A stretch of 64,000 bases of DNA from Octopus vulgaris (Eukaryota). The position numbers and the translations under genes are program-made. The stretch lies in the NCBI GenBank assembly GCA_951406725.2, contig OX597818.1, positions 61,442,001 through 61,506,000 on the forward strand, given 5' to 3'. Shown here one piece after another: positions 3,990-64,000 of the stretch. Position 1 is the stretch's first letter. Each line of letters opens with the position of its first letter. A model generated the notes under the pieces. It was not told where the DNA came from, made no database searches, and saw nothing but the letters and a program-made list of their open reading frames with translations.

Positions 3990-4366
3990 GTGCACCATCC
4001 GAGCTTGATCGTTGCCACAGCGGCTAACTGGCTTCTGTGCCGGTGGCATGTAAAAGGCACCATTTGAGCGTGATCGTTACCAGCATCGCCCGACTGGCAC
4101 CTGTGCTGGTGGCATGTGTAAAAAGATTTGAGCGAGGTCGTTGCCAGTACCACCTGACTGGCCACTGTGCCGGTGGCACGTAAAAAGTACCAACTACACT
4201 CTCGGAGTGGTTGGCGTTAGGAAGGGCATCCAGCTGTAGAAACTCTGCCAGATCAAGATTGGAGCCTGGTGCAGCCATCTAGTTCGCCAGCCCTTAGTCA
4301 AACCGTCCAACCAATGCTAGCATGGAAAGCAGACGTTAAACAATGATGATGATGATGATGATGATG
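3990..4366 (+). mobile_element. SINE-like family A copy
   Basis: Repeated gtgccggtggcacgtaaaa modules, ggcgttaggaagggcatccagctgtagaaac, ends acgttaaacaatgatgatgat. Confidence 0.9.
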
Positions 4367-5680: not shown

Positions 5681-6455
5681 ATTGAGGTACTTGACTCAAT
5701 AGGTACTCAATCCAAGGTACTTTTGAGTGGGCTGGATATATGAACGACAAAATATTCTGTCCTTCAAGATAAAAGGGATCATAAATCTACAGAACTATCA
5801 TTTAAAACAGACTCAAATCGTTGCTTCATGAGGCAACGCATAGATGTTTTTGAAAAGCTATCCACTTAGCTAAATGTCTAAATTTCTAAGAAGAGGCATT
5901 ATTATATCATAAATTGTTATGTTAAGACAAAGAAAACAAGTGATCACGTACTCAGGGTTGATGATTGTAAGACTGCAGATTTCATTTCTGGACAAAGAAG
6001 CAAGTTGTGTCTTTGAGTAAAGCATTTTATGCTACTGCAGTCTAGTCACCTGAAAATTAGTATCAGCCAACTGCTGATGCAATTCTCTCACCCTCCAACT
6101 ATCATTTCCTCGACTCTCTACTGGTCCAAGAGGATGGCCATGCCTGCTAGTAACCAAAGAGACACCTAAAACAACAAGCAACAACATAATGAAAACTCCC
6201 AGATCCTATGCACTTCTACATCTAAGCACACTTCAGCTATGGTATCATTATTGCTAAACTCATAACATTTGCTAAATGTCCAAGGTACCTCTTGTAAGGT
6301 ACTTCTTCTAACCAGTAATATTACTGGAATTTGGAATCAAACCCATTTGGAATCTACAAAGATTGATGGTTTCCATTTCATTGTCCATCCAGGGATATTT
6401 ATATTATGCATCCTACTACTTGTGAGGCAACTAGTTTGCTACACTTCAACTAGTA

Positions 6456-6683
6456 CAGTTCTGTATTTAAGAGATGGGGAATTATGTACAGCTAGCATGG
6501 AAAGCGGACGTTAAACGATGATGATGATTTACCTTATTTACATTTGACAGATATTTGTCCTCATCTTTGAAATTTCCCCAAGACACCTGATGAAGGCTGG
6601 AGGGTATATAAGCCAAAACGTTGTGTTAAAAACAAACAAGATGGGGACAAATATCCATCAAATGTAAATAATGTAAATGATGT
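6456..6683. mobile_element. Hammerhead element H1, fold-back insertion 1 (with a family A stub at 6491-6527)
   Basis: Minus 3' arm 6456-6569, plus arm 6570-6683 with GACAC-CTGATGA-A-GGCT...AGCC-AAAA-CGTT-GTGTT; 13-bp direct repeat acttcaactagta at 6443-6455 and 6684-6696. Confidence 0.8.
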
Positions 6684-7423
6684 ACTTCAACTAGTATTTA
6701 TAATTTGACTGATGCAGGGATTGACCTCATACCTATTAGCTAACGAAATTACCACAATATTCGTCACTTCCCCATTGTCTAGAATAACTGAAGCTTACAT
6801 TTACTATCCCCGTTGCATTGTGTAGTGAATATAAAAGTGTTTTGTTAAGTATAATAGATTAGTTAGCTAGTGGGTATGATGTCAAAATTGGTGAGTCAGC
6901 CAAACCAGACACGCACTGGTTGGAGAGCAAAGCAAACTAGCCACATCACACATGTTGTAGAATAAGGAGAATATCCTTGGAATGGACAATGAAATGAGAA
7001 CAATTTATTCCAAAGAATTAAATAAACAGCTTGGTTCTAAATTCCAAGAACGTTACTGCATTTGGCCACAAGACAGTAGCTATAACAACCAAGATAAGGA
7101 TACTAGTTCAAATACGTCCATAATAAGATAATTGTATCGTATGATGCTACCCACAAACTTCAGTCTCAATTATGTCATCTAGGTGAATATAAATCAATTG
7201 ACGGACCAGACAGAATCTCATGTCACCACAAATCTTCAAAGTGATCGCATTATTTCCTTTCTGTGTTGTATCCATGTTAGCTTTGTGCTGCATTTAGTTG
7301 TGCTATAGAAACACCATTGCTAGTTACAGTTAAATGCTCAACTAAGAGAAGATCAATTGGAGAAAGACTTTAATCTAATTGAAAAGACATCCGGTAAGAA
7401 AAAAAACCCAGAATATCACTCAA

Positions 7424-7463
<40 letters not shown>

Positions 7464-7599
7464 TAGAATATTCTGCAATTTTGAAGGGATTGTTAAAAAT
7501 AGGATGATGGAGGTCTGTTTACTGATGGAAGATTCATTAAGCAATTTGCATTTAATTCAACTTTCTCCCACCAAACTGCAGCTCCAATCAATACTGTAC

Positions 7600-7990
7600 A
7601 CTTGCAAGAGTTAAGAAACACCCATTCATTTAGCTGTGAGAATTGGATTATTTCAGGAAAGAGAAGTGGCTGTATTTTGATGCTTTAGAGGATGATCATA
7701 AGTTCAAGAATCTACCTGGATATCCTGAAGTAATCTACACACGTGGTTTCACTCTTTTCCTAAAGAATAGTGCACCATGCAATTCTACAAAATGCTCTCA
7801 GAGGCTAAGAGCTAGTGGTTTTAATTTAGTGGTTAAAAGGCAACAATCATCTCCTGAGCTGAACCCTATGGAAAATGGCATCATATGAAAAAGATTATAG
7901 CTTATATAAGGCTTTTATTACTTTGGGATTTAAAAGAGAAGGTATTAAGTCTGGGCATAGAAAATAAGACTTTTGCAAGCATTTAACTGG
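7600..7990 (+). pseudogene. Decayed Tc1-family (DD34E) transposase fragment
   Basis: FLKNSAPCNSTK...QSSPELNPMEN resembles Tc1 F.QDNAPCH...QSPDLNPIEN; upstream VKKHP resembles TVKHP; stops and frameshifts present. Confidence 0.7.
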
Positions 7991-8189
7991 AGACAAAAGA
8001 ATACCATATCAAGTATTGAGAAGTATAACATTGAATCTACATTATCAAATGCACCATTAAAACCTTAATTTTACTGGTGAATAAGACTTGACTGAGACTG
8101 TATTTTGTATTCTTAAACTTGTTTTTATGAATGTGACTGTGTATATGTACACACTCACACACATAAATGCTTGTCTGTCGAGGAAGCCA

Positions 8190-8410
8190 TATGTACAACA
8201 TGTGCTCCATACTACTAAACTATATTCAACCATTTTTACTATAGAATTTTCTTTAGGAATCCTGCTTTCTGATGTAACTTTGCACCACACTTCCCACTTC
8301 CTCAAAACCCCTTTTTCAGCATTTTCTCCTTGTCCTCCATCTTCATTTGCTAATTTGTGACCAAAGTGACCACACAGTTCTTTACTCTCAAACAAGGGTC
8401 TCAATGTAAG
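8190..8410 (-). mobile_element. Degenerate RTE-type LINE RT/thumb fragment
   Basis: FGHKLANEDGG...WEVWCKVTSESRIP...YSLVVWS..TYG resembles RTE YLG...W.KV.GV..DRRIP...Y..VVRP.MLYG. Confidence 0.45.
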
Positions 8411-8787
8411 ATTCTACACTCCTCACTCATAAAACTAATAATTTTTTTCTACAAACTGCCCCTGTGATAATTTGTTATTGATAAAGATCCTCACAAGTTA
8501 CCTCAAATTCTGAATTTTACTGTAAACCAACCATCGGATACCAGTTATTATCTTGTGCTATAAACTTATCTGATTCACCATCGATGGCAGCACAATAACC
8601 ACATGAACCAATAAAACAAACCACATTATGGCCACTCAACTTGCTACAATAGCAGTTATGTTGCCCTCAAATCACAATGGGAAAAGTCAATTTAGATTAT
8701 CCACATCTACTAAAAGCTGGGAAGTCACAGCTTGAATGCCTTATAATATAATTAAATAGGGCTATCTTGAAGCTAAACTACAATACC

Positions 8788-8995
8788 GCAATGGCCTAGT
8801 GGTTAGGGCAGCGGACTCGCGGTCGCAGGATCGCGGTTTCGTTTCTCAGACCGGGCGTTGTGTGTGTTTATTGAGCGAAAACACCTAAAAGCTCTACGAG
8901 GCTCCGGCAGGGGGTGGTGATCCCTGCTGTACTCTTTCACCACAATGGCGGTGCCCCAGCATGGCCACAGCTCAAGAGCTGAAACTGGAAAAACA
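8788..8995 (+). mobile_element. tRNA(Arg)-like SINE family D
   Basis: A box TGGCCTAGTGG, anticodon-like GACTCGCG, B-box-like GGTTTCGTTTC; tail ggcggtgccccagcatggccacagc..tgaaac shared with family B. Confidence 0.75.
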
Positions 8996-10102
8996 AACAA
9001 AAACAAACAAACAAATACCAAACAAGTTTTTTTTTTTTGTTTTTTGTTTTTTTTTTTGCTGTGTTCTTTTTTAACCTATGAAAATTAACTGGTTTGTGGA
9101 TCAGCAGATAAAAAATATGCCATTCTCATATCTGATGAAGAATAACATGTAATCTTTGAGTTCTTAGAAATTACTTTTTAGTTAATGAACTAAGGTTTTT
9201 TTTTTCACTTCATACCAGCTTAGCTGTAATGTACAATGCTACTCTTCCAATAACACAATGAGAACTGACTATGTTGTTCACATATGTTTAGAGTCAAATC
9301 AGTTATATCTTTGTTAGGTTTATATATTAGATGGAACCAAACATTAACACAACTGCAATGGTGAGACAGAATTTGATAATAGGTTTATAACTAAACTAAA
9401 CAAGCAAAGTTTTGGCTTCACCCATTAGTAATGTACGGAAGAGAATGGAACACAGCTGTTTAATACTCCTATATTGAACAACAAGTTACTTTCTTTATTG
9501 AGTTATCTTGACAATTTCAACTCGTGAAGCCTCAAATTATCATGCATAATCAATCTAACGATGAACTCTTCAAGCTTCAAGTCTGTCATATAATTAAAAG
9601 TACCCGAAAACGATTAATTTCAATTAACCCAAGGATTTGAAGCAATCCTTGATGTGATTTCAATGGTGTATTCCAATTAACATGTCCTTGTACACTGAAG
9701 GAGTTTCGTTTACAAAACGATGATCTAAGTTTTGAAATTATGTCATTCATTTACTCTTCATTTCTTGTTTATGTGCAGCAAAATGCTTCTGGACTAAATA
9801 ACAGGACTTGTAAATTATACTCTATAAACAGAGCCCTTCCCAGGTACAAATATCTCCATACCATCACTATTTAACATCCGTTTTCCATGCTGGCATGGGT
9901 TGGAGAGTTTCACAGGAGCTTTGGGATGGTTTCTCTGGTAGAATGACCTTAACACCAACCACTTTACCGTGAATTAGGTGTTTTTTTTTTTTTTACTCTG
10001 CACCAGCACCAGTGAGGTCACCATGAAACTTGCAACTGAGAGTGGGGAGGCATACTATTGAGGGAGGTGGCTTTGTGCTAGGAGATGAGAGGTCGTCTCT
10101 TT

Positions 10103-10511
10103 AGTTCTATATTCAAGAGATGAGGAGTCATGTACATTATTTACATTTAACGGATGTTTGTCCTCATCTTGTTTGTTGTTAACACAATGTTGTGACTGAT
10201 TTACTCTCCAGCCTTCATCAGGTGTTTTGGGAAATTTTGAACTTGGGTTCTCATTCCTAAGGTATTTTTTGATATTGTTATTGCCCACAGGTATATGATG
10301 TAGTGGTTACGAGTGCAGGCTACTAACCAAGATTCCAAGTTTGATTCCAGACAGTGACCTGAATAATAATAACATCAAAAAATACCTTAGGAATGAGAAC
10401 CCAGGTTTGAAATTTCCCCAAGACACCTGATGAAGGCTAGAGGGTATATCAGCTGAAACATTGTGTTAGCAAAAAACAAGATGAGGACAAATATCCATCA
10501 AATGTAAATAA
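10103..10511. mobile_element. Hammerhead element H1, fold-back insertion 2
   Basis: Headless minus arm 10103-10280; plus arm about 10282-10511 with tRNA-like head, (AAT)n and hammerhead motif at 10422-10467. Confidence 0.85.
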
Positions 10512-12674
10512 AGTTTACTCTTATAGTAGAAATGATACATGGCCACCTCAGCTGGAAAAGGAGGGAAGGAGAGAAAATAGTGAAAACAGTTGACAGTGAA
10601 GAGCAACATCATGAATTTCTCTGCTGCCATAATATGAAGATGAACAAGGAATAAGGTAGAGAGACAAATCCTGACTAATTTCCATGAAGGTTTTTGGGTA
10701 ATATGAACAGGATGTTCTGAAGAATTCACTGTGTTTCTTTGTTAGATACACAATAAACAAAGAGAATCCAGATTGCTTAAGACATGGTAAAAGCAGAACT
10801 AGTGTTACATGTGAGTGGAAAATAAATTTTCAAAAATAAAAAAAATAATAATAATAAATAAGATACAAATGACTTCTAACAAGTTAGTAAAATTTAATAT
10901 ATTCACTCAATTACATCACTATGCATTTTCAGTTCTTCATTTGTATGCAATTAGCTTAAACTACCAGCAATTTTAATTCAAATTCTGGTATAATTAATGT
11001 ACCCTTTTCTTCTAAAGTTATAATAATGTTGATAAGACTAATGATATCACTGTCTTACACGTGATGTTTAAGTCATCGGAACTTAAATTTTTCTTGCAGC
11101 TTGCATTGAGATTGCAATGTGAACTTTGATGTGTTGCAATTCTCTTATGTTTATTCACTAGTTTGTATTGTAGCAAATTCAAAGACAAGGATAAAAATGA
11201 TGTTACACATATAAAGGACACCAAATAAGTCCTACAAAATATTTCTTGGAGGTTACCCGAAAAGAAAACAGGCTTCGCACACAGATAAAGCTAAAATAAA
11301 CTTCTTAAAATTGAGAAAAATTACGTAATGCATGTTTTGAGGAATTATGATCATACATATCATTTTTAACAAGACACTGAAATAAGTTCATCTGTCGATA
11401 TGTTATAGATTAAAGGACAAATACATACTCCCATCAAGAACAACACTGTTGAAGGAGCAGATAATGAAGAGAAAAATAAACCAGAAATATATAGAAAAGC
11501 TGATGCTAGCATACATTGAACTCAGAACAGGAAAACACCCAAACGGTTTTACTGCCTATGCTACTGTTCTACTGCCCTGACCATCTTAGCCATTATATAT
11601 GGAAAACTTTTAGAAAAATACCAAGGAAATTACAACTGAATGTCTTTCACAGGACATTCTGATATCTAAATATCTGAAAAGGATTTTCTGGTGAGTTATA
11701 TTGCAAATTTTTAAATGTGAAATTCAATCAAGACTTTATATTGAATTCCAGCTCCTGTTTTCCTGCATCCAAAATGGATATTGTCATTGTTTTCTTCCAT
11801 TGAATTATGATGCTGAAATATAATATTGGTAATACCTTAATGCCTAACAACAGTTTGAATTTAAACAATTTGACAAATGCCAGCTTATATCTTAGTTTGC
11901 AGTCTACACTTTAATAAAAGAAGAATGTACAGACAATATTAAGGCTACACTTGATATTCAGTTGTTTAAATTATATAAAAAAATGCACAAATCACATGAG
12001 TATCTTACGTTATACAGAAGGGCAAAACTTTACAAGAACTAAGTAATATACATAGAACTATAAAATAGTTCTAAAAGCAGGATAAATATTAAATTGTGAA
12101 TTTTAAAACAATAAGTAACTAAATCAATATGAAAATAAATAAATGAATGAATGCATAAAATAAATATATAAAGTTATGTCAAGAGCTAAATTACATTTCA
12201 GATATTTCTGAGGGTAAAATTACATTTGGAAATGCCTTGGTTAGCTAATCAATTGTTATTGGATAGCATTTTTGCTAAGTAAAACAAATCTGAATATACC
12301 AGTTTGGACAGATTCCAAAGGAAATACCAAATGTAGACTACCATTCAGGGTAAATTTCAATAACTTCTGAAAGACATCTTAAATAGCAACAGTGAAGCAG
12401 CATTTAACCTCATACAGACGAGAGATAAAAATTAAATGTGTCAAATTCAAGTAGTTGAGATTAATTTGCTATTCTTTTCAATCTCATCTTCTAAATTATC
12501 AACCACTTCTAAATGAAATATATATCAACAGAAAAACATGAACTACAAGATTATATCATAAGATGGATGGCATATTTGATTATCTATTTTTCTAAGAATC
12601 CCATACTGCTGCACATAATGTTTATCCCCAACAAAAAAAAAGTATTGGTTTATAAAATTGTTGATGAAAATTCA

Positions 12675-12925
12675 TCCTCATCATCGTTTAATGTCCGCTT
12701 TCTATGCTAGCATGGGTTGGACAAATGACCGAGGGCTGGCGAACCAGATGATGTCTGCACCAGGCTTCAATCTTGATCTGGCAGAGTTTCTACAGCTGGA
12801 TGCCTTTCCTAATGCCAACCACTCCAAGAGTGTAGTGGGTGCTTTTTACATGCCAGTCAGGCGGTACAGGCAATGACCTCACTCGAATCTTTTACACATG
12901 CCACCGGCACAGGTGCCAGTAAGGT
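12675..12925 (-). mobile_element. SINE-like family A copy
   Basis: catcatcgtttaatgtccgc...ctacagctggatgcctttcctaatgccaaccac. Confidence 0.88.
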
Positions 12926-12999
12926 GATATGCGAAAAAAAATGGGGGGTATTGTTGCCATGTTTATTGCAAAACATAAATGCGACTGGCATTACAAAGT

Positions 13000-13290
13000 T
13001 GCAATGGAAAGAAGAATGGTGAATATTTTGATGAACGAATTACATGTATAAGGAGAAGATGGCAAGTGTTCAAGATACACTTCAAAAAGTAACAAAAAAC
13101 AAAGTGGAACTGGACAGACAATTTTGATAGAACAAAGGACAACAAATGGGTGAAGAAGAGCTATGGCGGATGTGACACAAAAGGAAAATGAAGGACAACA
13201 CTGAAGAATACATCAAGGCAATTAAGAGAGGTACAAGAATGGCAACAGACAGGAAGAAACATGAAGAACGTTGTCCAACAGTGAACTGTT
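13000..13290 (+). mobile_element. Decayed RTE LINE C-terminal fragment
   Basis: Conceptual translation across frameshifts AMERRM...KWNWT...RTKDNKW...MATDR...VQQ matches the RTE C-terminus pattern KW.WAGH..R..D.RW. Confidence 0.6.
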
Positions 13291-14369
13291 GTATCTTATG
13301 AGATGGAAAGCAAATTGGTAAAAGCTAAAAAAAATTAATCAAAGTCTTATTAATAACAATAAAGTATATTTCACATTCTATAATATATATGTTAATGAAT
13401 ATTATCCTGTTTAATTTCGGGAAATTAAAAACAAATGTCTAATCATTGTGAATGACTTTAAATATCAAACAAGTAAGTAATCTACATTTCGCTTTCATAT
13501 GGAATTAATAAAAAGAAAAATATCTGATTGATGCTTTGGAATTAATCAGTAAACTTTCTCTCTTGGTTCATCTTACCAGTCCAATTCATGCTCAAAACAA
13601 ATCAGAGTACAGATAATTCACCATTTGATAAGGTAGAGAAACTTTCTATTAAATTTTAGTATTGATCTCCTATAAAATCACATAAGCTATGGAAGCACAT
13701 ATGGTTCTGTGCTAAATTTAGACATTAAACCTAGCTAGCTGTCCACTAACAATGACAGGCTTCCCAGAGTTGAAGTTCCATACAATGACTTATTTACATT
13801 GCATTAGTTATTCAAACCTAAATAGCAACTAATGCTTTTAAACCTTCAATTTCCAAATGAAAATGCCAAATTTTCAGAAACAGAATTCAAAGTAATAGAA
13901 CATTTAATTGACAATTATGATAGAAGAAGCTGAAGATTTTGTAATTACAATACTCCAATCTAAATAATAAATTAATATCCTTCTACAGCTATAAATTTAA
14001 ATATCATTTACAACTAAACTGGTTGCATCCCTGAGTACTGGTGGTGCTTTCATTAGGATTCATTCAGTGATTATGTTTCAGAGTCCTTTCTAAATGCAAA
14101 TTTATAATAAGTGCTTAAAGTACAACACAACAACCTCAAAAAAATGTCTTGCTTTTATAACTAAGAAAGTAGCAGAGAAACGGCATAATTAACTTATTAA
14201 CTTAAACAATCTAAGATAAATTATCGAGCAAATCACTAAAGAATATGAAATCTGTAAGAACATCAGATTCAAATGAAATATGAAATACAAGAACTATAAA
14301 TTACCGTTCCCTGATAGCGTTCACTACTAACAACAGCTGGTCACCTACACATAAATATACATATCTTTC

Positions 14370-14766
14370 TTTTACTTATTTCAGCCATTTGACTGTGGTC
14401 ATGCTGGAGCATCACCTTTAGTGAAGCAAATGGACCCCAGGACTTATTCTTTTGTAAGCCTAGTACTTATTCTATTGGTTCCTTTTGCCGAACTACTAAG
14501 TTATGGGAATGTAAACACACCAGCATTGGTTGTCAAGCAATGTTAGGGGGACAAACACAAACACACAAACACACACATGCACACACACACACAGAGACAC
14601 ATCATATAGAGGGCATTACTATACATAAATGCCACACTCTAGGAGGGACTTTTAAAGCCAAAACTACCAAAATAAATAAACACATCGTACCGAATGTGAG
14701 GGAATGCAACTCTTGAAGCAAGCCATTAAAAACAGAATTACACATTTTTTATCCTATTTTTAAATA

Positions 14767-14813
<47 letters not shown>

Positions 14814-14950
14814 CACACATAAATATGACGGGCTTCTTTCAGTTTCCATCTACCAAATCCACTCACAAGGCTTTGGTTGGCCCAAGGATATAATAGAAGA
14901 CACCTGGGACCATGTGGTTGGTAAGAAATCTACTTACCACATAGCCACCC
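14370..14950 (-). mobile_element. SINE family B with a ~160-bp insert in its central microsatellite
   Basis: Tail at 14370-14600, unrelated sequence about 14603-14765, head part 14825-14950. Confidence 0.85.
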
Positions 14951-15382
14951 CATAACTCATCATTCTATTGTTGTGCCAAACTGCAGGTACAAGAAAGCCA
15001 CCATTCATCAATCCAATTACAATTAACTTTACTGTTTTAACACCTGGCTTTATTTAAATGGAGGTCTTGTTTTCCAAGTTTTATTGATTAGATTCTTTAG
15101 GGGTTTTTCTTTTTTTTTTCCGGCTACATAAGTAAGAATTGGAAGTAACTAAGTATTTTTTTTCCAGAAAACTTTACTATTAATTTAAATATCTAAATTA
15201 CTGAGATGGTTAGATTCATTTTAACATGATGTAAAAAAAAAAATGTCAAAATAAAATTTGCTTTAAACATAAAATTTTACTAAATATTATAAATGAAAAA
15301 TTACTTTACTAAATGTTAATAAATAATAATGTTAACTTTTTTTTAAAGAAAACTATTCTTAAATATTTGCATCTTTAAAAAT

Positions 15383-15810
15383 ATGTGGCTGTGTGGTAAG
15401 TAGCTTGCTTACAAACCACATGGTTCCGGATTAAGTCCCACTGTATGGCACCTTTGGCAAGTGTCTTCCACAATAGCCTCGGGCCGACCAAAGCATTGTG
15501 AGTGGATTTGGTAGATGGAAACTGAAAGAAGCCCATCGTGTATATATATATATCTATATATGTATGTGTGTGTATGTATATGTGTGTGTGTGTATATGTT
15601 TGTCTGTCTGTGTTTGTCCCCACCACTAGCATCGCTTGACAACTGATGCTGATGTGTTTATGTCCCCGTAACTTAGCGGTTCGGCAAAAGAAACCGATAA
15701 AATAAGTACTAGGCTTACAAAAAATAAGTCCTGGGGTTGATTTGCTCGACTAAAGGTGGTGCTCTAGCATGGCCACAGTCAAATGGCTGAAACAAGTAAA
15801 AGAGTAAAAG
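15383..15810 (+). mobile_element. SINE family B, near full length
   Basis: gtggctgtgtggtaagtagcttgc ... tgaaacaagtaaaagagtaaaag. Confidence 0.92.
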
Positions 15811-16392
15811 ACCGAGATACATTTCCAAATTATCAGGAGACATACAAATAAAAAAATATTTCTATGTAAGAAAAATTATAACACCTTTTTCCCTCTGGTG
15901 ATTCTCTCACTTAAAAAAGATATCAACAGAAAAATTATGAGAATGTACAATGAAGTTGAGTGAAAAATAGGTTTGAGATTGGTCACCAAAAATAGTCAAT
16001 TAGTTATATTTCAGGCGATTATAGATAATTATCTTACTAATATAAAATCTGAAATGTGTGGAGGCACAAGATAATTGTCTATTCTTATAAGGGAGTACTT
16101 TTCCACCAAAAACAGCGAAGCTATGAGACATGTTTCACTATCACCCCTCCTTCCATACCTATATTCTATGTTAATTAAACAACAAAACGAAATTATGTTA
16201 CTGAAAGCAACACATACATACACACAAACACAGTATGAGATTACAGCTCTACAAAGACAACTAAATGTTCTCTCCATTTTAGCAGCACTCTCTCCACACC
16301 AAGTAGCTTATAATGCAACTGGTCAAGTGCTCCCCACATAAATACATAGCAACTGGGCATGTTTTCTAAAGGGACAATCACACTTATATAAA

Positions 16393-16928
16393 CCCAAGAC
16401 CCGGCAAGCCAAATGAGACCATAACCTCATGGCCTATAACCAGCCTGCTTATGCGTACCTTTTCCTTCTTTGGTCACTAAACTCTGCTTGCGAAGACCTG
16501 TTAAGGTAAGTGAAATCAAAATTAAATTCGATGACTGGCATCTGTGCTAGCGGGGTGCAAAAAGCACCATACAAGTGTGATCATTTGACAGAGCGGCTAA
16601 CCGGCTTCTGTGCCAGTGGCACATAAAAGGGTGCCATTCGAGTGTGATCGTTACCAGCATCGCTTTACTGGCACCTGAGCTAGTGGCATGTGTAAAAAGA
16701 TTTGAGCGAGGTCATTTCCAGTGCTGCCCGACTGGCCCTCGTGCCGGTGGCATGTAAGAAGCACCCACTACACACTTGGAGTGGTTGGCGTTAGGAAGGG
16801 CATCCAGCTGTAGAAACTCTGCCAGATCAAGATTGGAACCTGGAGCAGCCATCTGGTTCGCCAGCCCTCAGTCAAAATCGTCCAACCCATGCTAGCATGG
16901 AAAGCAGCCGTCAAACAATGATGATGAC
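16393..16928 (+). mobile_element. SINE-like family A, long copy
   Basis: Multiple GGCAC modules, conserved core and (GAT)n tail; 5' extension starting aagacccggcaagcc. Confidence 0.85.
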
Positions 16929-17527
16929 AACCTGAGAGGACAATGGGAAAACAAAGCAACTGGGGTAGCAATATGTAAGAAGAGGGAGCAACACTGTACG
17001 TTTGTATGTAGGTGTAACAGTTAGTCTCATTTGATCCAAGCTAACTTTGGGAAAAAGTGGATGTTTAGCATATACACACAAAAGCAAAACAGTTGACTTA
17101 TAATGCAAACACATTTATTACTACATAACTTCATCTAACTGTCTAAGCACAGATCAAAGAATTTCGTCCAAAATCTTTCCTCGCCTACCTTTGCTCCAGG
17201 TATTCTACATCAGTACATCACCAGATAGTAATAAACCTGACAGTTGTTGCAATCTCATTTTACCTTATCACAGCAATCAAGTGTTTTTAAATACTTTTGA
17301 ACGACTCTGACTGGAAGCCATTTAAAATAACCAGTAGTTCCCAACTTTTAATTTTCTTTCACATATTTTAGCAGCTTATTTCCATTCCACTAATGTCCTC
17401 AGTTCTATGAGCTTATGGAGTCGAGCTGAAATATTTCTGTTGTGCATTATATTTTCTGTTTTCTAAATGATACTTACACATAGCGACCATTTCAACAAGT
17501 TCTGAGATACCTGTATCTCTTGGATAT

Positions 17528-17787
17528 GGCCTCCGTGCCAGTGGCATGTAAAAAGTACCAACCGATCGTGGCTGTTGCCAGCCTCACCTGGCACCTGTGC
17601 AGGTGGCACGTAAAAAAGCACCCACTACACTCATGGAGTGGTTGGCATTAGGAAGGGCATCCAGCTGTAGAAACACTGCCAGATCAGACTGGGCCTGGTG
17701 CAGCCTCCTGGCTTCCCAGACCCCAGTTGAACCGTCCAACCCATGCTAGCATGGAAAGCGGACGTTAAACAATAATGATGATGATGA
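17528..17787 (+). mobile_element. SINE-like family A copy
   Basis: Conserved core and ggacgttaaacaataatgatgatg tail. Confidence 0.88.
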
Positions 17788-19569
17788 GTACCTCTCCAGT
17801 AGTCAAACATTTTGATATTATACTCCTCATTCATATTTCATGTGGCAACATGTATATACTTTGTATAAAGCAACTAAATTCACCTCATGTTCTACTCAAG
17901 TATTCTTTATTGTCTACAGTTTACTAATATTACAAAATACTGTGATATCATCAATGGAAGCTTTAACTGTTTACTGTTACCAAAATTAATTCTGTTATCT
18001 TTGTAAGAAAACTAAAGTGTGTTTAGAAAACCTTTAGCAAATATATTCCACGTCAACAATGGTCTTTCTGTGACCAATTTTGCTATATATAAACCAAGGA
18101 ATAACCAGTTAATATTAGTACTGGCAATTTCGACTTTTCACTATCTCTCACACTGACTCATTAATTAAAACTAGGATGTGTGAGATAAAAATATGGATAT
18201 TCATATATATGTAAACATTATCAGATAGTGTAAGGGGGTAGGATAACCGAACCAGGTAGGTAAGTTAGTAATTAGATTCATTACTGAATGTGTTAATAAT
18301 CTTGGCTTTCTTGTTCTAACAATGCAATTACATCAAATACGTTAACACCCACTTTTAAGGCAAGTTGTATTATGTTTCCTCTCATGAAATATGACTCAAA
18401 AGTTCGTTTTGTAATACTTTCCAATTTCATTCTTAGGAAAGAACACTTTGTGAAATTGTCTTTTACTTTGGAGTGAGTGAGTGAGTGAGAGAGTTTCTAT
18501 GTTTACTGCTTTTAAAATGATGTTAAATTAAATCCACCTCTAACGAAGATTCTTTGCCACTTGATGAGCAGATATCGTTATACTGTTATATTTATTCATG
18601 TATAATATACACTCCCAGCCATTCATATGTCCTCAAACAAATGAGTGTGCATTAAACACGAGAACTTGAGGTTACCCACTTTTCTAGATATCATTATGTG
18701 GCCATTCCGAAAAGGTGTAAGTGACAGATTTTATAATAGTCAACTAATGTGTAATGAAGAATTTGAATCATTAAGATGTTACATTTCCAATGGTAGTGAT
18801 AATACATTAAATGTTTATTATATTTTCTATATACATCCTACATATAAAATCCTAACTGTGCTCATAGCATTGTATTGCTCAAGGTTGTTTACTATTTTAC
18901 AAACACTGAAATGATTTAAAAGTAAATTGTAAAACTAACACAGAAACAGCAAAATTAGGAAAGCTATTTATATATAGTATCTATATATATATTTACAGTT
19001 TCAGTTTATACTATGTACCTCAATTTGTGCTACATACATTGCTGCATGAAAATTTTATCAGATTTCAATAACCCCACCATAATAGAGAATAACAGGGAAA
19101 GGTTAAGTTTGATAACATAAAGGACATCCACTCACAGAAAATCTGCCTCAGCCTATTCCATCTGACCCATGCGAGCATGGGAAAGTGGACGTTAAAACAA
19201 TGATATTGATGTCTAGGCCTCATAAAGGAAATAAACACAGAAGTTTATTCCTATATTCTTTTTTTTCCACTTAGTATATAGGATCCAGTTTTTTTCTACC
19301 ATAAAAAAATTAAAATCACAATTTGTTTTCTGCTATTTACATATAATTACAGGTTTTCTTTATAATCCAATGAACAAAAATTAAAACTGTTTAATTCAAT
19401 TTGTTACTTACAAAACACTAATCCAGTTAATTTGGCTATATTAGAAGAAAATATTACAAATATACTGCATTAAAATGAAATACATTGTAGAGATTTGAAT
19501 CTTCAGAATAATGAATTCTTTCTTCATTGAATACAATAAAGCTTCTATAATTAATATTATTATATATGG

Positions 19570-21130
19570 CAGCATCCATTAGTTTTGTTGGACTAAGAAT
19601 CTGCAACTAGAAAGTCTTGTTCCAATCTTGTAGCAGAACAGTGCATCAGTGCATACTGTAACAGATTGCCATGTGAGGAACAATCCTGGCTGCAGTGACT
19701 ACACTTGAAGGCAGCCTGCCAGTCTTGCTCGGGTGCCATTCCTCTGTTGATTTTGCTTTGCTTGATAACCAAACCACAAATTTTCTTCTCGTCTTTTCAA
19801 CTCTTTAGCATTCAAGTTAATCTGTCAAATGCAATTTATTCATGTTTGTTTTGAATTATTCATACAATATTTAGTACCTTCAAGATTTCAATGATGTGAC
19901 TCTAGTTTTAGTATGGCATTGTAGGGTAAGGTCAGTGAGGCCAGATCTGGCTGGTTTGAGCATAAAACAGGTAGAATATTTGGGTCAGGTCTGGCTGGTT
20001 TAAGTGTAAAATGTTTAAACCCATGTCAAGTTTTAATCTACGGCAGCTGCAATCATCAGAAACAACCTCCTGCTTTCCAACATCCATGTAAAGAAACTTT
20101 TCATTTTTTAAATGACAGTGTTGTTCTTGTGTTCACTTTCCAGAGGTGTCATGTAGCAAGATTTTGGGATTCTCCCACCTGACAAGTGATGTACATGACC
20201 TAGCCAGTGGAGGCAACATTTGTGCAGTAGGGTGAGGAGGCTGGATTATGCAGATGTGAGGCAGGAGCTCACTGTTGGTGACTAAGTCAGTCCACTTGAT
20301 GTTCATGATCCATTCTGGGCTGCATAGGTGAAAAGCATTGAAGGACAAATTGCATTTATCCAGAATAGATGTTCCAAGTCTTACTCTCATAGAGCAGTGT
20401 ACTGAGAATACAAGTTCTGTAGACTGCAACCATGGTATGCAGTATTAACTTACTGTTCTCCCAAATTCTTGTCAGCCTTAGCCAGTGTTGAAGCTGCATT
20501 TCCAATATGTCAAGTCAGACTCCAAAGAGAAATTGCTCTGATGGTGGAACTGGAAATTCATTAACTGCCTATATTTCATAGATGTTGATGGTAATGATGG
20601 GGGACGCTCAACATCTTGCCCCAGCAACACTTTAGTCTTCTTCAGACAGATGGTAATGCTGAAATCTCAACAGTCTCTTTGAGAATGTCCATGAAGCTTT
20701 GCAGTTGCTCTTCCAAGAATACCACATCATCTACAAAGGCCATGTCCCCAATGATTATTTTGCATATTTGGGATTTTGCCCTTAGGAGAAAGAAACTGAA
20801 CAATGTACTCATTTGATTGTATGTGGAGATAAACACCATCAATTGATGCTGCAAAGGTGTGCTTCAGCATGACAGCAAAGATGATGTCAAACAGAGTTGG
20901 GGTAGGCACAGTCCACTTTCACTCAACTGCAAATCATGAAGGGGTTAAAGTAGGGGCCATCAAACTGAGTGACACTTTTCATGTCTATGGGGAATGACTG
21001 CACCATCTTACATAACCTCAAAGAATATTCTATCTTGTCAAGGATTTTGAACAGGCCATCGTTAGACATAGCATCAAAGGCCTTCTTCATAAGTTAGTGG
21101 AAAAGATGTAGAGTGTTTGCTATTGACCTC
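19570..21130 (-). mobile_element. 5'-truncated decayed RTE (BovB-like) LINE, RT domain to C-terminus, interrupted by a MITE
   Basis: Minus-strand motifs KKAFD, PTLFDIIFAVMLKH, DMAFVDD, FNAFHLCS..IMNIKWTDLVTNSELL and a terminal Cys motif; many frameshifts. Confidence 0.88.
19797..20018 (+). mobile_element. TTAA/piggyBac-type MITE family M1 (nested in RTE)
   Basis: Homologous along its length to 23259-23487; termini decayed. Confidence 0.75.
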
Positions 21131-21806
21131 TTCAGTTTTGTTTGTTGTCAAAGACAGAAAATCAGGTTAATATAGTAGTGCATTAAAATGTGGTATGTCA
21201 CAGGATCTGAGTCTTCTGTATAATGAATACTTTTTCACTGAATATAAAATTTCTCCAGCTATAAATCCTATTATAATTAGTATCATCATAAGGTCTAAAA
21301 CTGGCTAGAGAATACAAGCCACCAAGAAGTTGTGAGCATTTTGCAAGTAGGTTGAGCCTAATCAATATCTGCAGTGTTTCTAAGTATTAGCTTATACACT
21401 TCTTCCACAAGTCTTTTTTTTTTTTCGCATAATTATCTTAATGATTTTTCTTCCAACATAAATATTCAAATATGACAATCGGAACAATCTCACGATCCAT
21501 TCTTCCTTTCACATATCACAAAGGCCAGTTATTGGTACTTTTTCAGCTCCTAAAGCTGTTATTTCACATTGGCATTTCTCTAAGAAGAATAGGCATTACT
21601 TATAATCTATATTCATTTACAAGAAATATTTTCCGAACACAAATATTAGATATCATCTTTATTATGAGATTCAGAGTCATCTACACTCTTATCTATGGTA
21701 GAAACAAAGACAGATTGGAATAAATCTTTACTGGAATTTTCTCTTTTCTGAGTCACAACTTAGATACGCCTTGCATCATAAAATGATGATCAGATAAGTA
21801 CTGAAT

Positions 21807-21919
21807 GTACCACGGGCATATGGTGTAGTGGTTAAGTGTGCGGGCTACTAACCCCAAGATTCTGAGTTTGATTCCAAGCAGTGACCTGAATAACGATGAT
21901 AATAATAATAACAATAATA
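21807..21919 (+). mobile_element. H1 head-only insertion (tRNA-like head plus (AAT)n)
   Basis: gggcatatggtgtagtggttaag...gagtttgattcc..gtgacctgaataa; 13-bp direct repeat ataagtactgaat at 21794-21806 and 21920-21932. Confidence 0.8.
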
Positions 21920-22246
21920 ATAAGTACTGAATCAATTTGGTCAACTGTGCCAAGTCCCCTACAGCATTTCTGGCCCAGGAAAATTTGTAAATTATCTGTT
22001 ACAATATTCTTATTATTTCGTTTACAGTAGTGATTTCCATCAATCATTAATTTGCAATAATTGAGCTGACATAATAACCATTGATTAAACTAAATCCTCT
22101 TTGTATCCAGAATAGCAAACTTATATGTAATTTGTTCATATTGTTCACAAATAAAAGAAAAAAAAAAAGAAAATTGCTAAGTTGACAGAATATGAAATTC
22201 AGGTAAACATTTACTTAGAATTAATCTTCAAACTAGGTACTGCTGT

Positions 22247-22388
22247 ACATTATTTACATTCGACGGTTATTTCTCATCCTTTTTGTTGTTAACACAATGT
22301 TTCAGCTGATATACCCTCCAGCCTTTATCAGGTGTCTTGGGGAAACTTCAAACCTGGGTTCTCATTCCTAAGGTATTTTTCAATGTTG

Positions 22389-22419
<31 letters not shown>

Positions 22420-22694
22420 GCCCATGGGCATATGGCATCGTGGTTAAAAGCGCAGGATACTAACCCCAAGATTCTGAGTTTGATTCCAAGCAGTGACCTG
22501 AATAATAATGATAATAACATTGAAAAATACCTTAGGGATGAGAAACCAGGTTCAAAATTTCCCCAAGACACCTGATGAAGGCTGGAGGGTATATCAGCCA
22601 AAACGTTGTGTTAACAACAAACAAGAGGAGGAGAAATATCTGGCAAATGTAAATAACGTACATAATTCCTCATCTCTTAAATATAGAACTGTAT
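22247..22694. mobile_element. Hammerhead element H1, fold-back insertion 3 (most complete)
   Basis: Minus arm 22247-22416, plus arm about 22420-22694 with head, hammerhead motif 22567-22612 and full tail; direct repeat taggta(c/t)tgctgt at 22234-22246 and 22695-22707. Confidence 0.88.
22567..22612 (+). ncRNA. Minimal type I hammerhead ribozyme motif (this copy has G12>A)
   Basis: Stem I GACAC/GTGTT, core CTGATGA plus A, stem II GGCTG/CAGCC, (G>A)AAA, palindromic AACGTT stem III, predicted cleavage after GUU. Confidence 0.7.
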
Positions 22695-23258
22695 TAGGTA
22701 TTGCTGTTTTAGGTACCCTATCTTTTGATAGGTGGATAGAAATTACAAAACTCCAAATTCAGTAGCTACTGTTTAATAATTGAGGGTTTTCAGTTTCTAT
22801 GTTCAGGAAGCAGATAAAACAAACTGAGTAACTATCTTATTTTTACTCACACAATAATAGATATAAAGGTAAATTTTCTACTTACACCAATTAAAACAAA
22901 TGCCAAATTGCAGGGAAATATTTCTCACAGATAATACTGATTCTCAGTCTTGCAATTATATTGCTTCTGACCAGAAGAAATTTCACCAATAGAAGTATGT
23001 TGGCTTCCTTTTAACCAATTGGTTATATGATGAGTAGTTTATGGGTACAAAGTTGAAATTAAGTGTTTCTAAACTTTTCTAATCAGCAAACAATTGAATG
23101 TGTTTAAGTTTAACTACCTACAAAGAATACGACTTCAGGAAAATGTCATCTGTGATGAACTAGTACCCTACACAGCAAATATATGCTTTGCTACTATTGT
23201 TACTACTTGTAACGATAAGAAAAAGGTACCATTTTAATAAGGAGAGTAGGTGATTTTA

Positions 23259-26692: not shown

Positions 26693-26794
26693 ATATATTT
26701 ATATATATATATATGAGAATATATTTATATATATATATATGAGAATATATTTATATATATATCATCATCATCATCATCATCATCATCGTTTAAC

Positions 26795-26825
<31 letters not shown>

Positions 26826-26840
26826 ATATATATATATAGA
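26525..26840. repeat. (AT)n-GAGAATATATTT minisatellite followed by an (ATC)n/(GAT)n palindrome
   Basis: Directly visible tandem units and inverted trinucleotide arms. Confidence 0.9.
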
Positions 26841-39479: not shown

Positions 39480-40300
39480 TGATGAGTAATCCATGAACTT
39501 TTAACAGGACCTCTGAGACAGATGAGGAAAAGAGAAGAATCTGGTGTCCTGCTCTGAACGCTTGTAAAAGTGAACTGTGGGAAAGGATTCGAAGTGGCAT
39601 GCTTATAAACCAGCATCATCCACATTTAACATCTGCTTTCAATGTCAAGGATGGGTAGGGACAATTTAATAGGAAACTGGTGAGCTGCAGCGCCACATCA
39701 AGCTCCAGCATCATCTTTAGGTTCTCCAGCAGTGCACTGACTCTGATGACCACAGGGTTAGGGTTAGGGGGTTCTATGAAGCTCTCAAGGCAGTTTACAA
39801 TCCAACACATCAAGTCCACAGCTCAGATGGCCAAGCACGTGTCACAGACACAGCATCCATCTTCAACCGCTGGTCTGAATACTGTCAGACCCTCTTCAGT
39901 GCAAAACCGAGTTGTCCAAAAAAACGTAATCCCCTACATCTAGCAGTAACCAGTCAGAGTGGAACTAGAGTTTCCAGCCCTAGAAGAGTCCACAGTTGCC
40001 ACAGGCCAGCTGAAGAGTAGAAAGGCAGCAGGAATCGATGGTATACCAGCAGAGATATGGAAGCACGGGGGTCTTGTTGTACATGCTAAACTCCATGAGC
40101 TCATCGTTGTGTGCTGGGAACAGGGCCAGCTGCTACAAGTTCTTCTAGATGCTGTCATCATTACACTACAAAAACAAAGGGGAAAAAACTGCTCAAACTA
40201 CCAGGAGATAACCCTGCTTTCCACTGCAGGAAAAGTGTCTAGCAAGATTACTCCTCAACAGGCTTGTTCTGTCCATCACCAAAAACCATCTTCCAGTTAC
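39480..40300 (+). mobile_element. Decayed RTE LINE internal fragment (pre-RT and RT N-terminus)
   Basis: QLKSRKAAGIDGIPAEIWKHGG...LHELIVVCWEQG...DAVIITL...CSNYQEITLLSTAGKV is a typical RTE/BovB ORF segment. Confidence 0.88.
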
Positions 40301-40402
40301 TACAGTATCAATAAAATAAAGATGCACTGGAGGATAGTGACTAAAGAAATATACAAATAATTAGCCCTCTTCCCTGAAAATTTTGCCTCAAAAGTTAATA
40401 CC

Positions 40403-61059: not shown

Positions 61060-61350
61060 GTTGTGTAATGTAAGTGTACATGTTTGACAGACTGATGGTA
61101 TATTGAAAGAGAAATTAGGCATAAGAAGAAGAAGTAGATACAGTGTGCAAGAGCGAAGGCTGTGCTAGTTTGGTCAGGTGATGTGGATGGATGCCAACAG
61201 CTTCATAAAGAAGTGTCAATCTCTCAAAGTGGATGGAACACATGGGACCAGGAGAGCCAGGAAGTGCTTTCAAGCAAAATTGGATAAAAATGTTAAAGGA
61301 CGACCTCTGGAGGCTGAACTTTTGAGATAAAATGACAAAGGACTGAAATA
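61060..61350 (+). mobile_element. Decayed RTE LINE 3' fragment
   Basis: LKEKLGIR...VQERRLC*FGQVMWMDANSFIKKCQSLKVDG matches the RTE C-terminal RRLRWFGHV motif. Confidence 0.75.
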
Positions 61351-61354
61351 CCCC

Positions 61355-61536
61355 ACAGCAGAAGTGTTAAGAAATGTACCTGACAGCAGAAGTGTTAAAA
61401 AGTGTCCAAGACAGCAAAAGTGTTAAGTGTCTCTGACAGCAGAAGTGTTAAGAAGTGTCTCTGACAGCAGAAGTGTTAAGAAGTGTCCCTGACAGCAGAA
61501 GTGTTAAAAAGTGTCTCTAACAGCAAAAGTGTTAAG
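61355..61536 (+). repeat. 28-bp minisatellite, about 6.5 units (ACAGCAGAAGTGTTAAGAAGTGTCTCTG)
   Basis: Directly visible head-to-tail units without spacers. Confidence 0.92.
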
Positions 61537-64000
61537 GCCACTCCTCCTGATGAACAGGATTGGCTTGCAAGTGTTGTATGCCAGTGCCAAATAGAAAGCA
61601 TTCATGCTGCAGTCAGGCAAAAGCATTCACTCATGCAGTACTATGTTAAAACCCAGCACACACACACACTGTAATGTGGTTGGCATTAGGAAGGGCATGC
61701 AGTTGTAGAAACCAAGCCAAATCTGATTGGGACCTAGTGCAGCTTGCCAGCTATAGTCAACTATCCAACCCATGCCAATATGAGATGATGATAATGTCAC
61801 ACACACATATACGAAATACAGATATTTTGCACTGTCAATTTAGCCCCAATATTACAAACGAATTGTGTTGCTGTGTGTTTATGTGTGCGAAAGTAGTTCT
61901 GTAGAATTAAGTTTTCTTGTATAACCAGTACTTGGCCAATTGCATGACAAATAGACTAATTATTACAGAAACAACAGTCTAAACAAAAAGGAAAATTTAG
62001 GTGGGGGAGAAAAAATTAAAGATTTACTTATTGATATGGTTCTTAGCACAATAACCATTGACAAAAATTTGGTTGTTTCTGAGATACCAGAGAGGGTACT
62101 TAAGTATTCAATGAAGCAACGAATTTTGATAAAAACAGAGTTGCCTAATCTATTGCATTTGTATCAGATGGGAGCTATTTCGGATAGGAAGGATGTTATG
62201 GTTGTGATCATTGTCAGAAAACACAAAGAAGAGACTAATTAGTGATCATATGCATCTTCAGATAAAACTATTACAAGATATTTCAGGTTATCAAATCCAC
62301 AAAAACTATTAGTCTCTACATGCAACTTAACATAAAGACTGTTATCAAATCTTCAATTGAAAACTGGATATTTTTTTTTTATACTTGAATAATTAAAATT
62401 AGATAATTTCAATTTAAAAACACTTTACAGTCAAAGTTTTGTAGTTTGCTGGTAGCAGATTGGCAGAATCAATAAGGCAACCAACAAAATTCATCATGAC
62501 GTGGTGCCTTTCATTGTTCTGCAGTCGAAAAAGTAAATACTAGTCACAAACTGGTGTTGATTTGATTGGTTCTGCCCTTCTTCAAAATGTGTGTGGCTTT
62601 GCACTTATGTTACAAATCAATATTGCAGATAAAGTTCCAATAGCTAAAATATAATTGACTTGTTATCTGATAAGAAGTCTGACTGCAGTAAAATAAAATT
62701 GAGTATTTATGCAATTGATAATTAATTCTCCAGCTTACAGGGAAAGCATTCGATATTATTGTTTCATATGCATGCATGGAAACTGAAACTTTTTAAGAAT
62801 AGGAACTAGGAAATGTTGATGGTTCCTGTTAAAGTATATATGCATTTTATCTGAGACAACAAAAGATTCCTAACAATAACTACAGCATGATGCAGTGAGG
62901 AATTATAAAAATAGAAAAAAAATAAATAAATAAAAGACAGTTTTGCTTAACCTTTTTAATATCATTTTAGATTTATACAAAGAATTACAACTAAAATCAT
63001 TGTTGGCTTAAAGTAACACAGCTATTAGTAAATACATATAGAAATCAATAAAAATATTTTACAAAATTAGATGATTTTGTAAAAAATATTATGCATACTT
63101 AAAAAAGAAAGAAGTAATGCTTAAACCAACTTTAAGTTTAAAAAGCGCCATCTTGTGATATATATTCCTTTCTTTTATATCAATAGAAGTAAAGTAACTT
63201 TAGTCGATTTCCAACATTGGGGAAAAACATATTTTCTGGTAAGTTAACCAGAATTTATGAATTTTATTTACTATTAAGTATAGCTGCAGTTACATTAATA
63301 CCTATCTTTCACTTCTCAAGTTTTCAATAAGCATCGTAAAATATAAAAACAAAATCCATGTGCTAGTTCAGCTTAATGTCAAAGTTTAGATACTTATATT
63401 AAAAAAAAACAGAGAAAGATAAGAGGAAATTTTTGTGAAAAGACTGAGAGTGCACACTGACAATATGAAAACTTTTACTTTTATTTACAGCTTATGTGTA
63501 AATAGTATGAAAAAAAAGTAAAATTCTGAATTGTTATGTGATGTCAACATAGCAACGTTTGAAATAAAGTGAAATCATGAAAAAGTGAAGTTGAGAAGGA
63601 GCAGCAAAGACCACACTGCTAGACTAGGATCAATACAACCTCAAGGGTATGGACATAAAAAAAAAAACAGTTATGACAACTGATTTTTCAGCCAGGTACA
63701 GATAACAGATGGCTAATGTCAATTGGGTGATATTTCTAGTATTTCTAGCTGGTTTTCACTTTTGGGAACCTGGAGCAGGATGGTGGTGGTGGTGGTGGGG
63801 GGGGTTATGATTTTGCTTTGTTATTTTATGTTTAATTATGTAATAATTTCTCTGAATTTCTATCTGCACACAGTTAAAAAAAAAAAAAATTAATGCCCTC
63901 TCTATTTGATCCATGGATACACATCAGAAAATAAGAAAATAAAAAACAGAAGTATGGAGATATACTTGCATAGCAAGTGACCTGTTCAGAGATTGTGTGT

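Follow-up and report, generated by a model that had tools for sequence, protein, structure and literature searches.

Endonuclease-bearing Penelope-like elements (PLEs), such as Penelope/Poseidon and Neptune, leave a characteristic pattern on insertion. Inverted 5'-truncated copies, together with a tail of 30-40 bp at either end, are standard for these retrotransposons (PMC8557442), and a rotifer study reported target duplications of 8-10 bp and palindromes at the junctions (PMC3846280). The PLE protein of the anole cleaves and extends both target strands and uses uncut RNA, and in this element two reverse transcriptase (RT) start sites bound the tail (PMC11167929). Another model put forward for PLEs invokes self-priming on antisense RNA (PMC3846280), and retrozymes have been argued to be non-autonomous PLEs (bioRxiv 10.64898/2026.07.22.740005). 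In this work, we focus on a short repeat of Octopus vulgaris, found as three inverted pairs in a window of 64,000 nucleotides, by which we mean the whole stretch analysed (assembly GCA_951406725.2, contig OX597818.1, positions 61,442,001 to 61,506,000 of the forward strand; coordinates below count from its first letter). This non-coding unit of ~275 nt is composed of a tRNA-like head (~80 nt), an (AAT)n tract, a short body, a minimal hammerhead ribozyme, a short 3' end and a 34-nt tail. We think it likely that a Penelope-like retrotransposon moves this unit as its non-autonomous passenger and that each locus goes back to one PLE-type event.

The window is AT-rich (34% GC) and contains many repeats and microsatellites. 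Comparison of the three loci, named L1 (6443-6696), L2 (10103-10514) and L3 (22234-22707), with the 64-kb window by blastn revealed six arms of one unit, forming three abutting inverted pairs. At all three, which comprise every hammerhead locus of the window, the arms meet without host DNA between them and the 3' ends of the element point outward, in a head-to-head arrangement, as an earlier reading of this DNA from its letters alone (hereafter, the sequence-only reading) had described. The identity between arms at aligned letters amounts to 133/150 in L3, 129/144 in L2 and 36/41 in L1. The same reading held that one arm of each pair has the full terminus and that the other stops about 30 nt short, and this holds at the three loci: the tail is present on one arm only, which in L1 and L2 is the left, inverted one and in L3 the right, head-bearing one, and the three short arms end within ~3 nt of one point (22659, counted on the right arm of L3), with the long end lying 31-35 nt further on. 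With regard to the centre of the fold-backs, L2 and L3 share a layout in which an inverted copy, broken in the (AAT)n tract, is fused to the first base of a full-length copy; since their loops correspond to the 80-nt tRNA-like head, each represents a truncated inverted copy plus a full-length copy. In L1, both arms are truncated and devoid of the head, and the left one is interrupted at the tail boundary by 38 nt of another dispersed repeat (6491-6528).

Target-site duplications were evaluated by comparison with 300 random boundary pairs. The 13-bp repeats that the sequence-only reading had placed around L1 (13/13) and L3 (12/13), with none convincing at L2, were all recovered. Its claim of one insertion per locus is sustained for L1 and L3, where the duplications enclose both arms, whereas for L2 it has the shared architecture alone. 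At both short ends having a duplication, element and duplication share 2-3 letters, which would fit a nicked target pairing briefly with the RNA. The copies at these loci are old, as judged from their CpG columns, in which 20 of 24 cells are decayed. When the five CpG columns are left out, the arms differ at 11/131 positions within L3 and 14/133 within L2, and the long arms of different loci at 10-15 of ~131; because two arms from one locus resemble each other no more closely than two from separate loci, divergence is no test of one versus two events, and this arm-by-arm approach was set aside as uninformative. The features of the three loci, and of a solo head copy discussed below, are as follows (null values give the random boundary pairs that did as well).

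6443-6455, plus strand: left target-site duplication of L1, 13/13 against 6684-6696; null 0/300.
6456-6569, minus strand: inverted arm of L1, composed of the tail (6456-6487) and ~41 nt of the body and cut short before the hammerhead; the centre junction shows ~2 nt of microhomology.
6491-6528, plus strand: 3'-terminal fragment (38 nt) of a different dispersed repeat that ends in (GAT)n, nested in this arm; up to 95% match with 4316-4353, with 17745-17782 and with further copies.
6570-6683, plus strand: direct arm of L1, with 5'-truncated body; the hammerhead lies at 6582-6627 and has A in place of G12, and the short 3' end contains an additional 9-nt repeat unit.
6684-6696, plus strand: right target-site duplication of L1, pairing with 6443-6455.
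10103-10282, minus strand: inverted arm of L2, running from the tail through a decayed hammerhead and the body to a break within (AAT)n.
10283-10361, plus strand: tRNA-like head of L2, with an A-box-like motif at 10296 and a B-box-like motif downstream.
10362-10514, plus strand: direct arm of L2, with (AAT)n, body and short 3' end; in its hammerhead (10422-10467) the core is preserved and a pair of helix III disrupted; no duplication.
21794-21932, plus strand: solo head copy, with duplication 21794-21806/21920-21932 (13/13; null 1/300), head at 21809-21888 and (AAT)n end; not inverted, no hammerhead.
22234-22246, plus strand: left target-site duplication of L3, 12/13 against 22695-22707; null 2/300.
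22247-22419, minus strand: inverted arm of L3, with short 3' end, decayed hammerhead (G8 changed), body and expanded (AAT)n tract.
22417-22432, no strand: perfect 16-bp palindrome across the centre junction of L3.
22420-22500, plus strand: tRNA-like head of L3, with A-box-like (22433-22443) and B-box-like (22478-22487) motifs, the latter matching the box consensus when family majority letters are used.
22501-22659, plus strand: direct arm of L3, with (AAT)n and body, then a minimal type I hammerhead (at 22567-22612) and the short 3' end.
22660-22694, plus strand: tail of L3, 34-35 nt.
22695-22707, plus strand: right target-site duplication of L3, pairing with 22234-22246.

Like the endonuclease-bearing PLEs (PMC8557442, PMC3846280, PMC11167929), the octopus family combines an inverted 5'-truncated copy abutting a 5' end, a tail of 30-40 nt at one end, a target duplication, a palindrome at the inverted junction (in L3), partial tandems and a minimal hammerhead just upstream of two 3' ends. 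It differs from them by the small size of the unit, the absence of an RT or GIY-YIG frame, and the presence of a tRNA-like head instead of a promoter in a pseudo-long terminal repeat (pLTR). This insertion pattern is in itself already known and not new, and its published hallmarks, namely, the inverted truncated copy, the one-sided tail, the duplication and the minimal hammerhead, support the PLE mobilisation put forward in the sequence-only reading. The element behaves as a PLE of the non-autonomous type, to which a tRNA-like head is added, and is not a textbook short interspersed element (SINE).

Related arrangements have been described in other animals. Schistosoma mansoni harbours opposite-strand pairs of minimal hammerheads ~100-700 bp apart, read there as probably truncated PLEs, for which the available text mentions no tRNA head, tail or duplication (PMC4209133); the hammerhead cores in the octopus are 206 bp (L2) and 241 bp (L3) apart. 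In the literature as far as available, the nearest known case to a tRNA-headed PLE passenger is Schistosoma SMalpha. The SINE-like elements SMalpha and Sj-alpha of schistosomes are also short non-coding repeats in which a polymerase III promoter is followed by a type I hammerhead, but they are described as tandem repeats that self-cleavage sets free, and no PLE-type inversion, tail or named PLE partner is given in the parts available (PMC6765202, PMC8490949). The animal non-LTR (long terminal repeat) retrozymes resemble the octopus unit as PLE-dependent non-autonomous derivatives with a type I hammerhead related to pLTRs; however, they are defined by head-to-tail tandems, whereas the window loci are inverted pairs and one partial tandem was found among 15 listed contig joints, and the words 'tRNA' and 'promoter' are absent from their main text as available (10.64898/2026.07.22.740005). 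Dependence on PLEs is likewise shared by non-autonomous Chlamys such as MRC1 (PMC8557442). A repeat annotation of Octopus vulgaris counts 893 unclassified families among 900 SINE families with recent activity, and its available text does not use the word hammerhead (PMC13282606). No report of a tRNA-headed element moved by a PLE was found in a literature search whose scope left out subscription journals and repeat databases, and the available parts of PMC10886601 and 10.1101/596502 hold nothing on a SINE-PLE pairing. The pairing of a tRNA-like head with PLE-type insertion may be new. Octopus SINEs derived from tRNA were reportedly described by Ohshima and Okada in 1994; judged by title alone, they have the tRNA-like head in common with the present unit, whose head may belong to one such family.

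The survey of contigs from other sequencing runs indicates that the family is very abundant. Four runs (of 24 listed), carrying three organism codes, were aligned to 22420-22720 at 80% likeness, and yielded 35,444, 2,949, 15,255 and 16,161 contigs matching the unit. Among the 24 of 1,200 rows listed, loose ends with unrelated AT-rich flanks cluster at 22693-22696 in the four runs. The 32 pieces listed of 70,197 form a biased sample, as the longest were favoured; 17 of them possess at least 100 nt of downstream flank, and of these, 10 end at 22686-22696, six at 22655-22665 and one at 22562. Two discrete 3' ends thus recur in 16 of the 17 flanked pieces listed, although a short end in a contig piece could also represent an alignment break. 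The 15 joints listed of 80 comprise 12 skips, two strand changes at new positions and one partial tandem; four of the 15 skip from head to body. At 22661, C is replaced by A in 6-22% of the contig depth and, together with several protein proxies, this suggests variable repeat units at the short-end start site, reminiscent of initiation slippage. The short end of the L1 right arm (6660-6683) carries an extra 9-nt unit, and the left arm (6488-6545) may once have had the same, before the nested insertion.

Protein models provided a further view of the family. The longest open frame of the unit, 57 codons, retrieved 37 proteins; once P0025, P0027 and P0029 had been dropped as unrelated, the remaining 34 look like chance translations of repeat copies. 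Twenty resemble the fold-back family, and by eye, the match extends into the tail in six of them and departs at the short end in seven, an exit that frameshifts can mimic in protein models. P0001 of Octopus bimaculoides is 80% identical, and further translations are P0034 (O. bimaculoides) and P0039 (O. sinensis). No RT or GIY-YIG Pfam match was present in the 37 proteins or in the tables of 3 and 13 matches from further searches, and the unit is not an autonomous PLE.

The hammerhead, judged from its sequence, is of the minimal type found in PLEs, and its helix III is palindromic. A descriptor of the minimal type I hammerhead, scanned over the whole 64 kb, gave one strict match (10427), two more when G12 was relaxed to A (6587 and 22572), and no others; these three matches are the right arms of the fold-backs. 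The sequence-only reading had called all three loci hammerhead-bearing; the motif does occur at each of them, in five of the six arms, because the L1 left arm is truncated below it. None of these five window copies has a fully intact core. In the L3 direct arm, cleavage is predicted after 22607, and G12 is changed to A. In the 40 of 59 contig rows listed, G is the majority letter at 22600, accounting for 80-90% of the summed depth in the four runs, and would restore both the core and the palindromic helix III, while the free core position 22576 is variable. Single hammerheads and heads folded alone gave z values of -1.7 to +0.9, and thus no support, two of the folding windows being off-centre. 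Pattern scans elsewhere found no matches in viral contigs or prokaryote genomes, and three metagenome matches of only 22-24 nt, in GC-richer DNA, were taken as chance. A tandem array with a 28-nt unit (61327-61564), followed by a CTGATGA heptamer, failed the hammerhead descriptor.

With regard to the head, its A-box-like (22433) and B-box-like (22478) motifs lie 45 nt apart and were seen in three copies, both boxes being judged against their standard consensus. The majority letters of the contigs at 22475 and 22481 reverse CpG decay, and the latter completes the B box. No run of four T occurs in the L2 and L3 units. Transcription by RNA polymerase III from this head may be proposed from these sequence features.

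Together, the loci suggest a mechanism, modelled on the anole PLE (PMC11167929). RNA polymerase III would transcribe the unit from its tRNA-like head, and a PLE protein would nick the two target strands ~13 nt apart, each nick priming a cDNA on uncleaved RNA. The two cDNAs would usually start at different sites, one at the tail end and the other ~34 nt upstream; one or both would stop early, then join head-to-head, and repair would leave a single inverted repeat within a single duplication. Snap-back copying of one arm was rejected as the sole mechanism for L2: as the tail is on the inverted arm and the head-bearing arm has none, the former would not be a snap-back copy, unless the right end of L2 was lost later. 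The 16-bp palindrome spanning the L3 junction fits the self-priming model too, but this is weak evidence, since palindromes of at least 14 bp are not rare in the window (21 listed).

The sequence-only reading also expected a long RNA hairpin from each locus. The three loci do fold as hairpins in prediction (z = -22.7, -21.3 and -4.8), which is a trivial consequence of their inverted repeats. Such a hairpin would need a read-through transcript, as one starting at the tRNA-like head would omit the inverted arm, and in read-through hairpins of L2 and L3 the hammerhead would be paired up.

Several observations weigh against the interpretation of the fold-backs as single PLE-type insertions of a tRNA-headed unit. 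L2 has no duplication, the best candidate of 5-6 nt being equalled by 198 of 300 random pairs, and a wider search revealed nothing of at least 7 nt. The duplications of L1 and L3 measure 13 bp, versus 8-10 bp in rotifer PLEs (PMC3846280). Arm divergence shows no sign of a common template. Strand changes account for only two of the 15 listed joints (80 in total), and the fragmented contigs give no share of fold-backs in the family. Among the protein models, P0009 is an independent head-to-head pair in which both arms are seemingly tailed, so that the asymmetry is not strict; four same-family proteins have at least 25 residues upstream, and P0009 alone shows an inverted arm. ARAGORN detected no tRNA gene, and the head has no Rfam match either; Rfam searches of the whole window and of 21780-22720 found no hammerhead or tRNA, only microsatellite and hairpin look-alikes below gathering scores. 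No autonomous PLE partner was retrieved in the protein searches, neither with the window frame nor in further ones (37, 3 and 13 matches). Finally, the solo head with its own duplication shows that the head also moves without the PLE-like end.

This last point underlies an alternative that we regard as rather unlikely, in which a headless non-autonomous PLE fragment (retrozyme-like or a solo pLTR) makes the fold-backs, and the head is a separate short SINE, captured once or inserting into (AAT)n, and not a working promoter. The solo head, matched at 21810-21905 by blastn, ends in (AAT)n, an ending seen on this copy only, within its 13-bp duplication; it may be the parent SINE or may have arisen by priming at the (AAT)n tract inside the unit. 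L1 has no head, P0026 extends as far as (AAT)n without a match to the head before it, and summed contig depth is lower over the head than over the hammerhead in the four runs, depth being no copy number; 5' truncation, however, suffices for headless copies. Furthermore, L2 and L3 agree in their head-(AAT)n-body join and in where the head starts, neither shows by eye a duplication around its internal head, and the join is bridged by five of the 32 listed contig pieces, in runs of two organism codes. The O. bimaculoides protein model P0034 opens with a translation of the head joined to that of the hammerhead. The duplication of the solo head has the same length, 13 bp, as those of L1 and L3, and a central 6-mer in common with that of L3.

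We consider it highly improbable that a long interspersed element (LINE) of the RTE, CR1 or R4/Dong type moves a SINE here by twin priming or template switching, with the hammerhead being incidental. Duplications of 13 bp together with 5' inversions are familiar from LINE-1, but LINE twin priming turns round the upstream portion of a single RNA and is not known to give a second copy of the 3' end, whereas here the 3' region is in both arms. No SINE-type 3' end was seen on the full unit, which finishes in a unique 34-nt tail free of simple repeats (no LINE library was searched). RTE, CR1 and R4/Dong are among the recently active insertions of Octopus vulgaris (PMC13282606), and the solo head ends in a simple repeat, like LINE-moved SINEs; against this stand the two discrete 3' ends, 31-35 nt apart, the long end lacking a simple-repeat tail, and a minimal hammerhead placed as in PLEs. 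Two independent adjacent insertions, or a later inverted duplication of one copy, might be expected from the abundance of the family, the equal divergence of arms within and between loci and the bare flanks of L2, but are scarcely credible, since three loci out of three abut head-to-head with no host DNA between the arms, the L1 and L3 duplications enclose both arms, and equal divergence is expected for one old event as well. A MITE-like DNA element (miniature inverted-repeat transposable element) with long terminal inverted repeats, the fold-back itself being the mobile unit, would account for the similar internal layout of L2 and L3, and deserves hardly any credence given ends that are unequal by 31-35 nt with sides swapped between L2 and L3, and the different centre junctions in L1 and two contig joints.

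Beyond the PLE-passenger interpretation, which we prefer, a more specific proposal appears to us evenly balanced: the unit would be a genuine SINE whose tRNA-derived head serves as its polymerase III promoter, with a PLE and not a LINE as autonomous partner, carrying the PLE hammerhead and both RT starts, present in tens of thousands of octopus copies, and making in many of its insertions 150-bp inverted repeats in one step. If it is true and the gap in the literature is real, a PLE-dependent tRNA-headed SINE would represent a new kind of SINE partnership. A short family of many thousand copies would also constitute a large natural data set for the insertion mechanism of PLEs, in which the number of tails (one or two), the start site used, the length of the duplication, microhomology at the primer and palindromes at the junction can be scored copy by copy. 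The octopus is known for heavy A-to-I editing, and inverted repeats formed in one step may supply double-stranded RNA in such an animal.

Other repeats were encountered during this survey. Fourteen of the retrieved proteins (P0002, P0003, P0004, P0008, P0011-P0013, P0020, P0022, P0030, P0032 and P0035-P0037) represent a sister repeat with units of ~44 codons, in tandem in eight of them and with an inverted copy upstream in three. P0040 and P0041 correspond to a third variant with the same hammerhead-to-tail layout and a different upstream part, and several PLE-dependent short families may coexist. P0034 (dystrobrevin beta isoform X1) and P0039 (LOC115224785 isoform X2) start with the repeat translation, through either exonisation or annotation error. 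In the window, a 136-codon open frame at 39950-40360 resembles a decayed piece of an RTE-type LINE reverse transcriptase, and a small hairpin at 26749-26836 consists of the motif that ends the other abundant repeat in (GAT)n, set between (GAT)n and (ATC)n runs in opposition.

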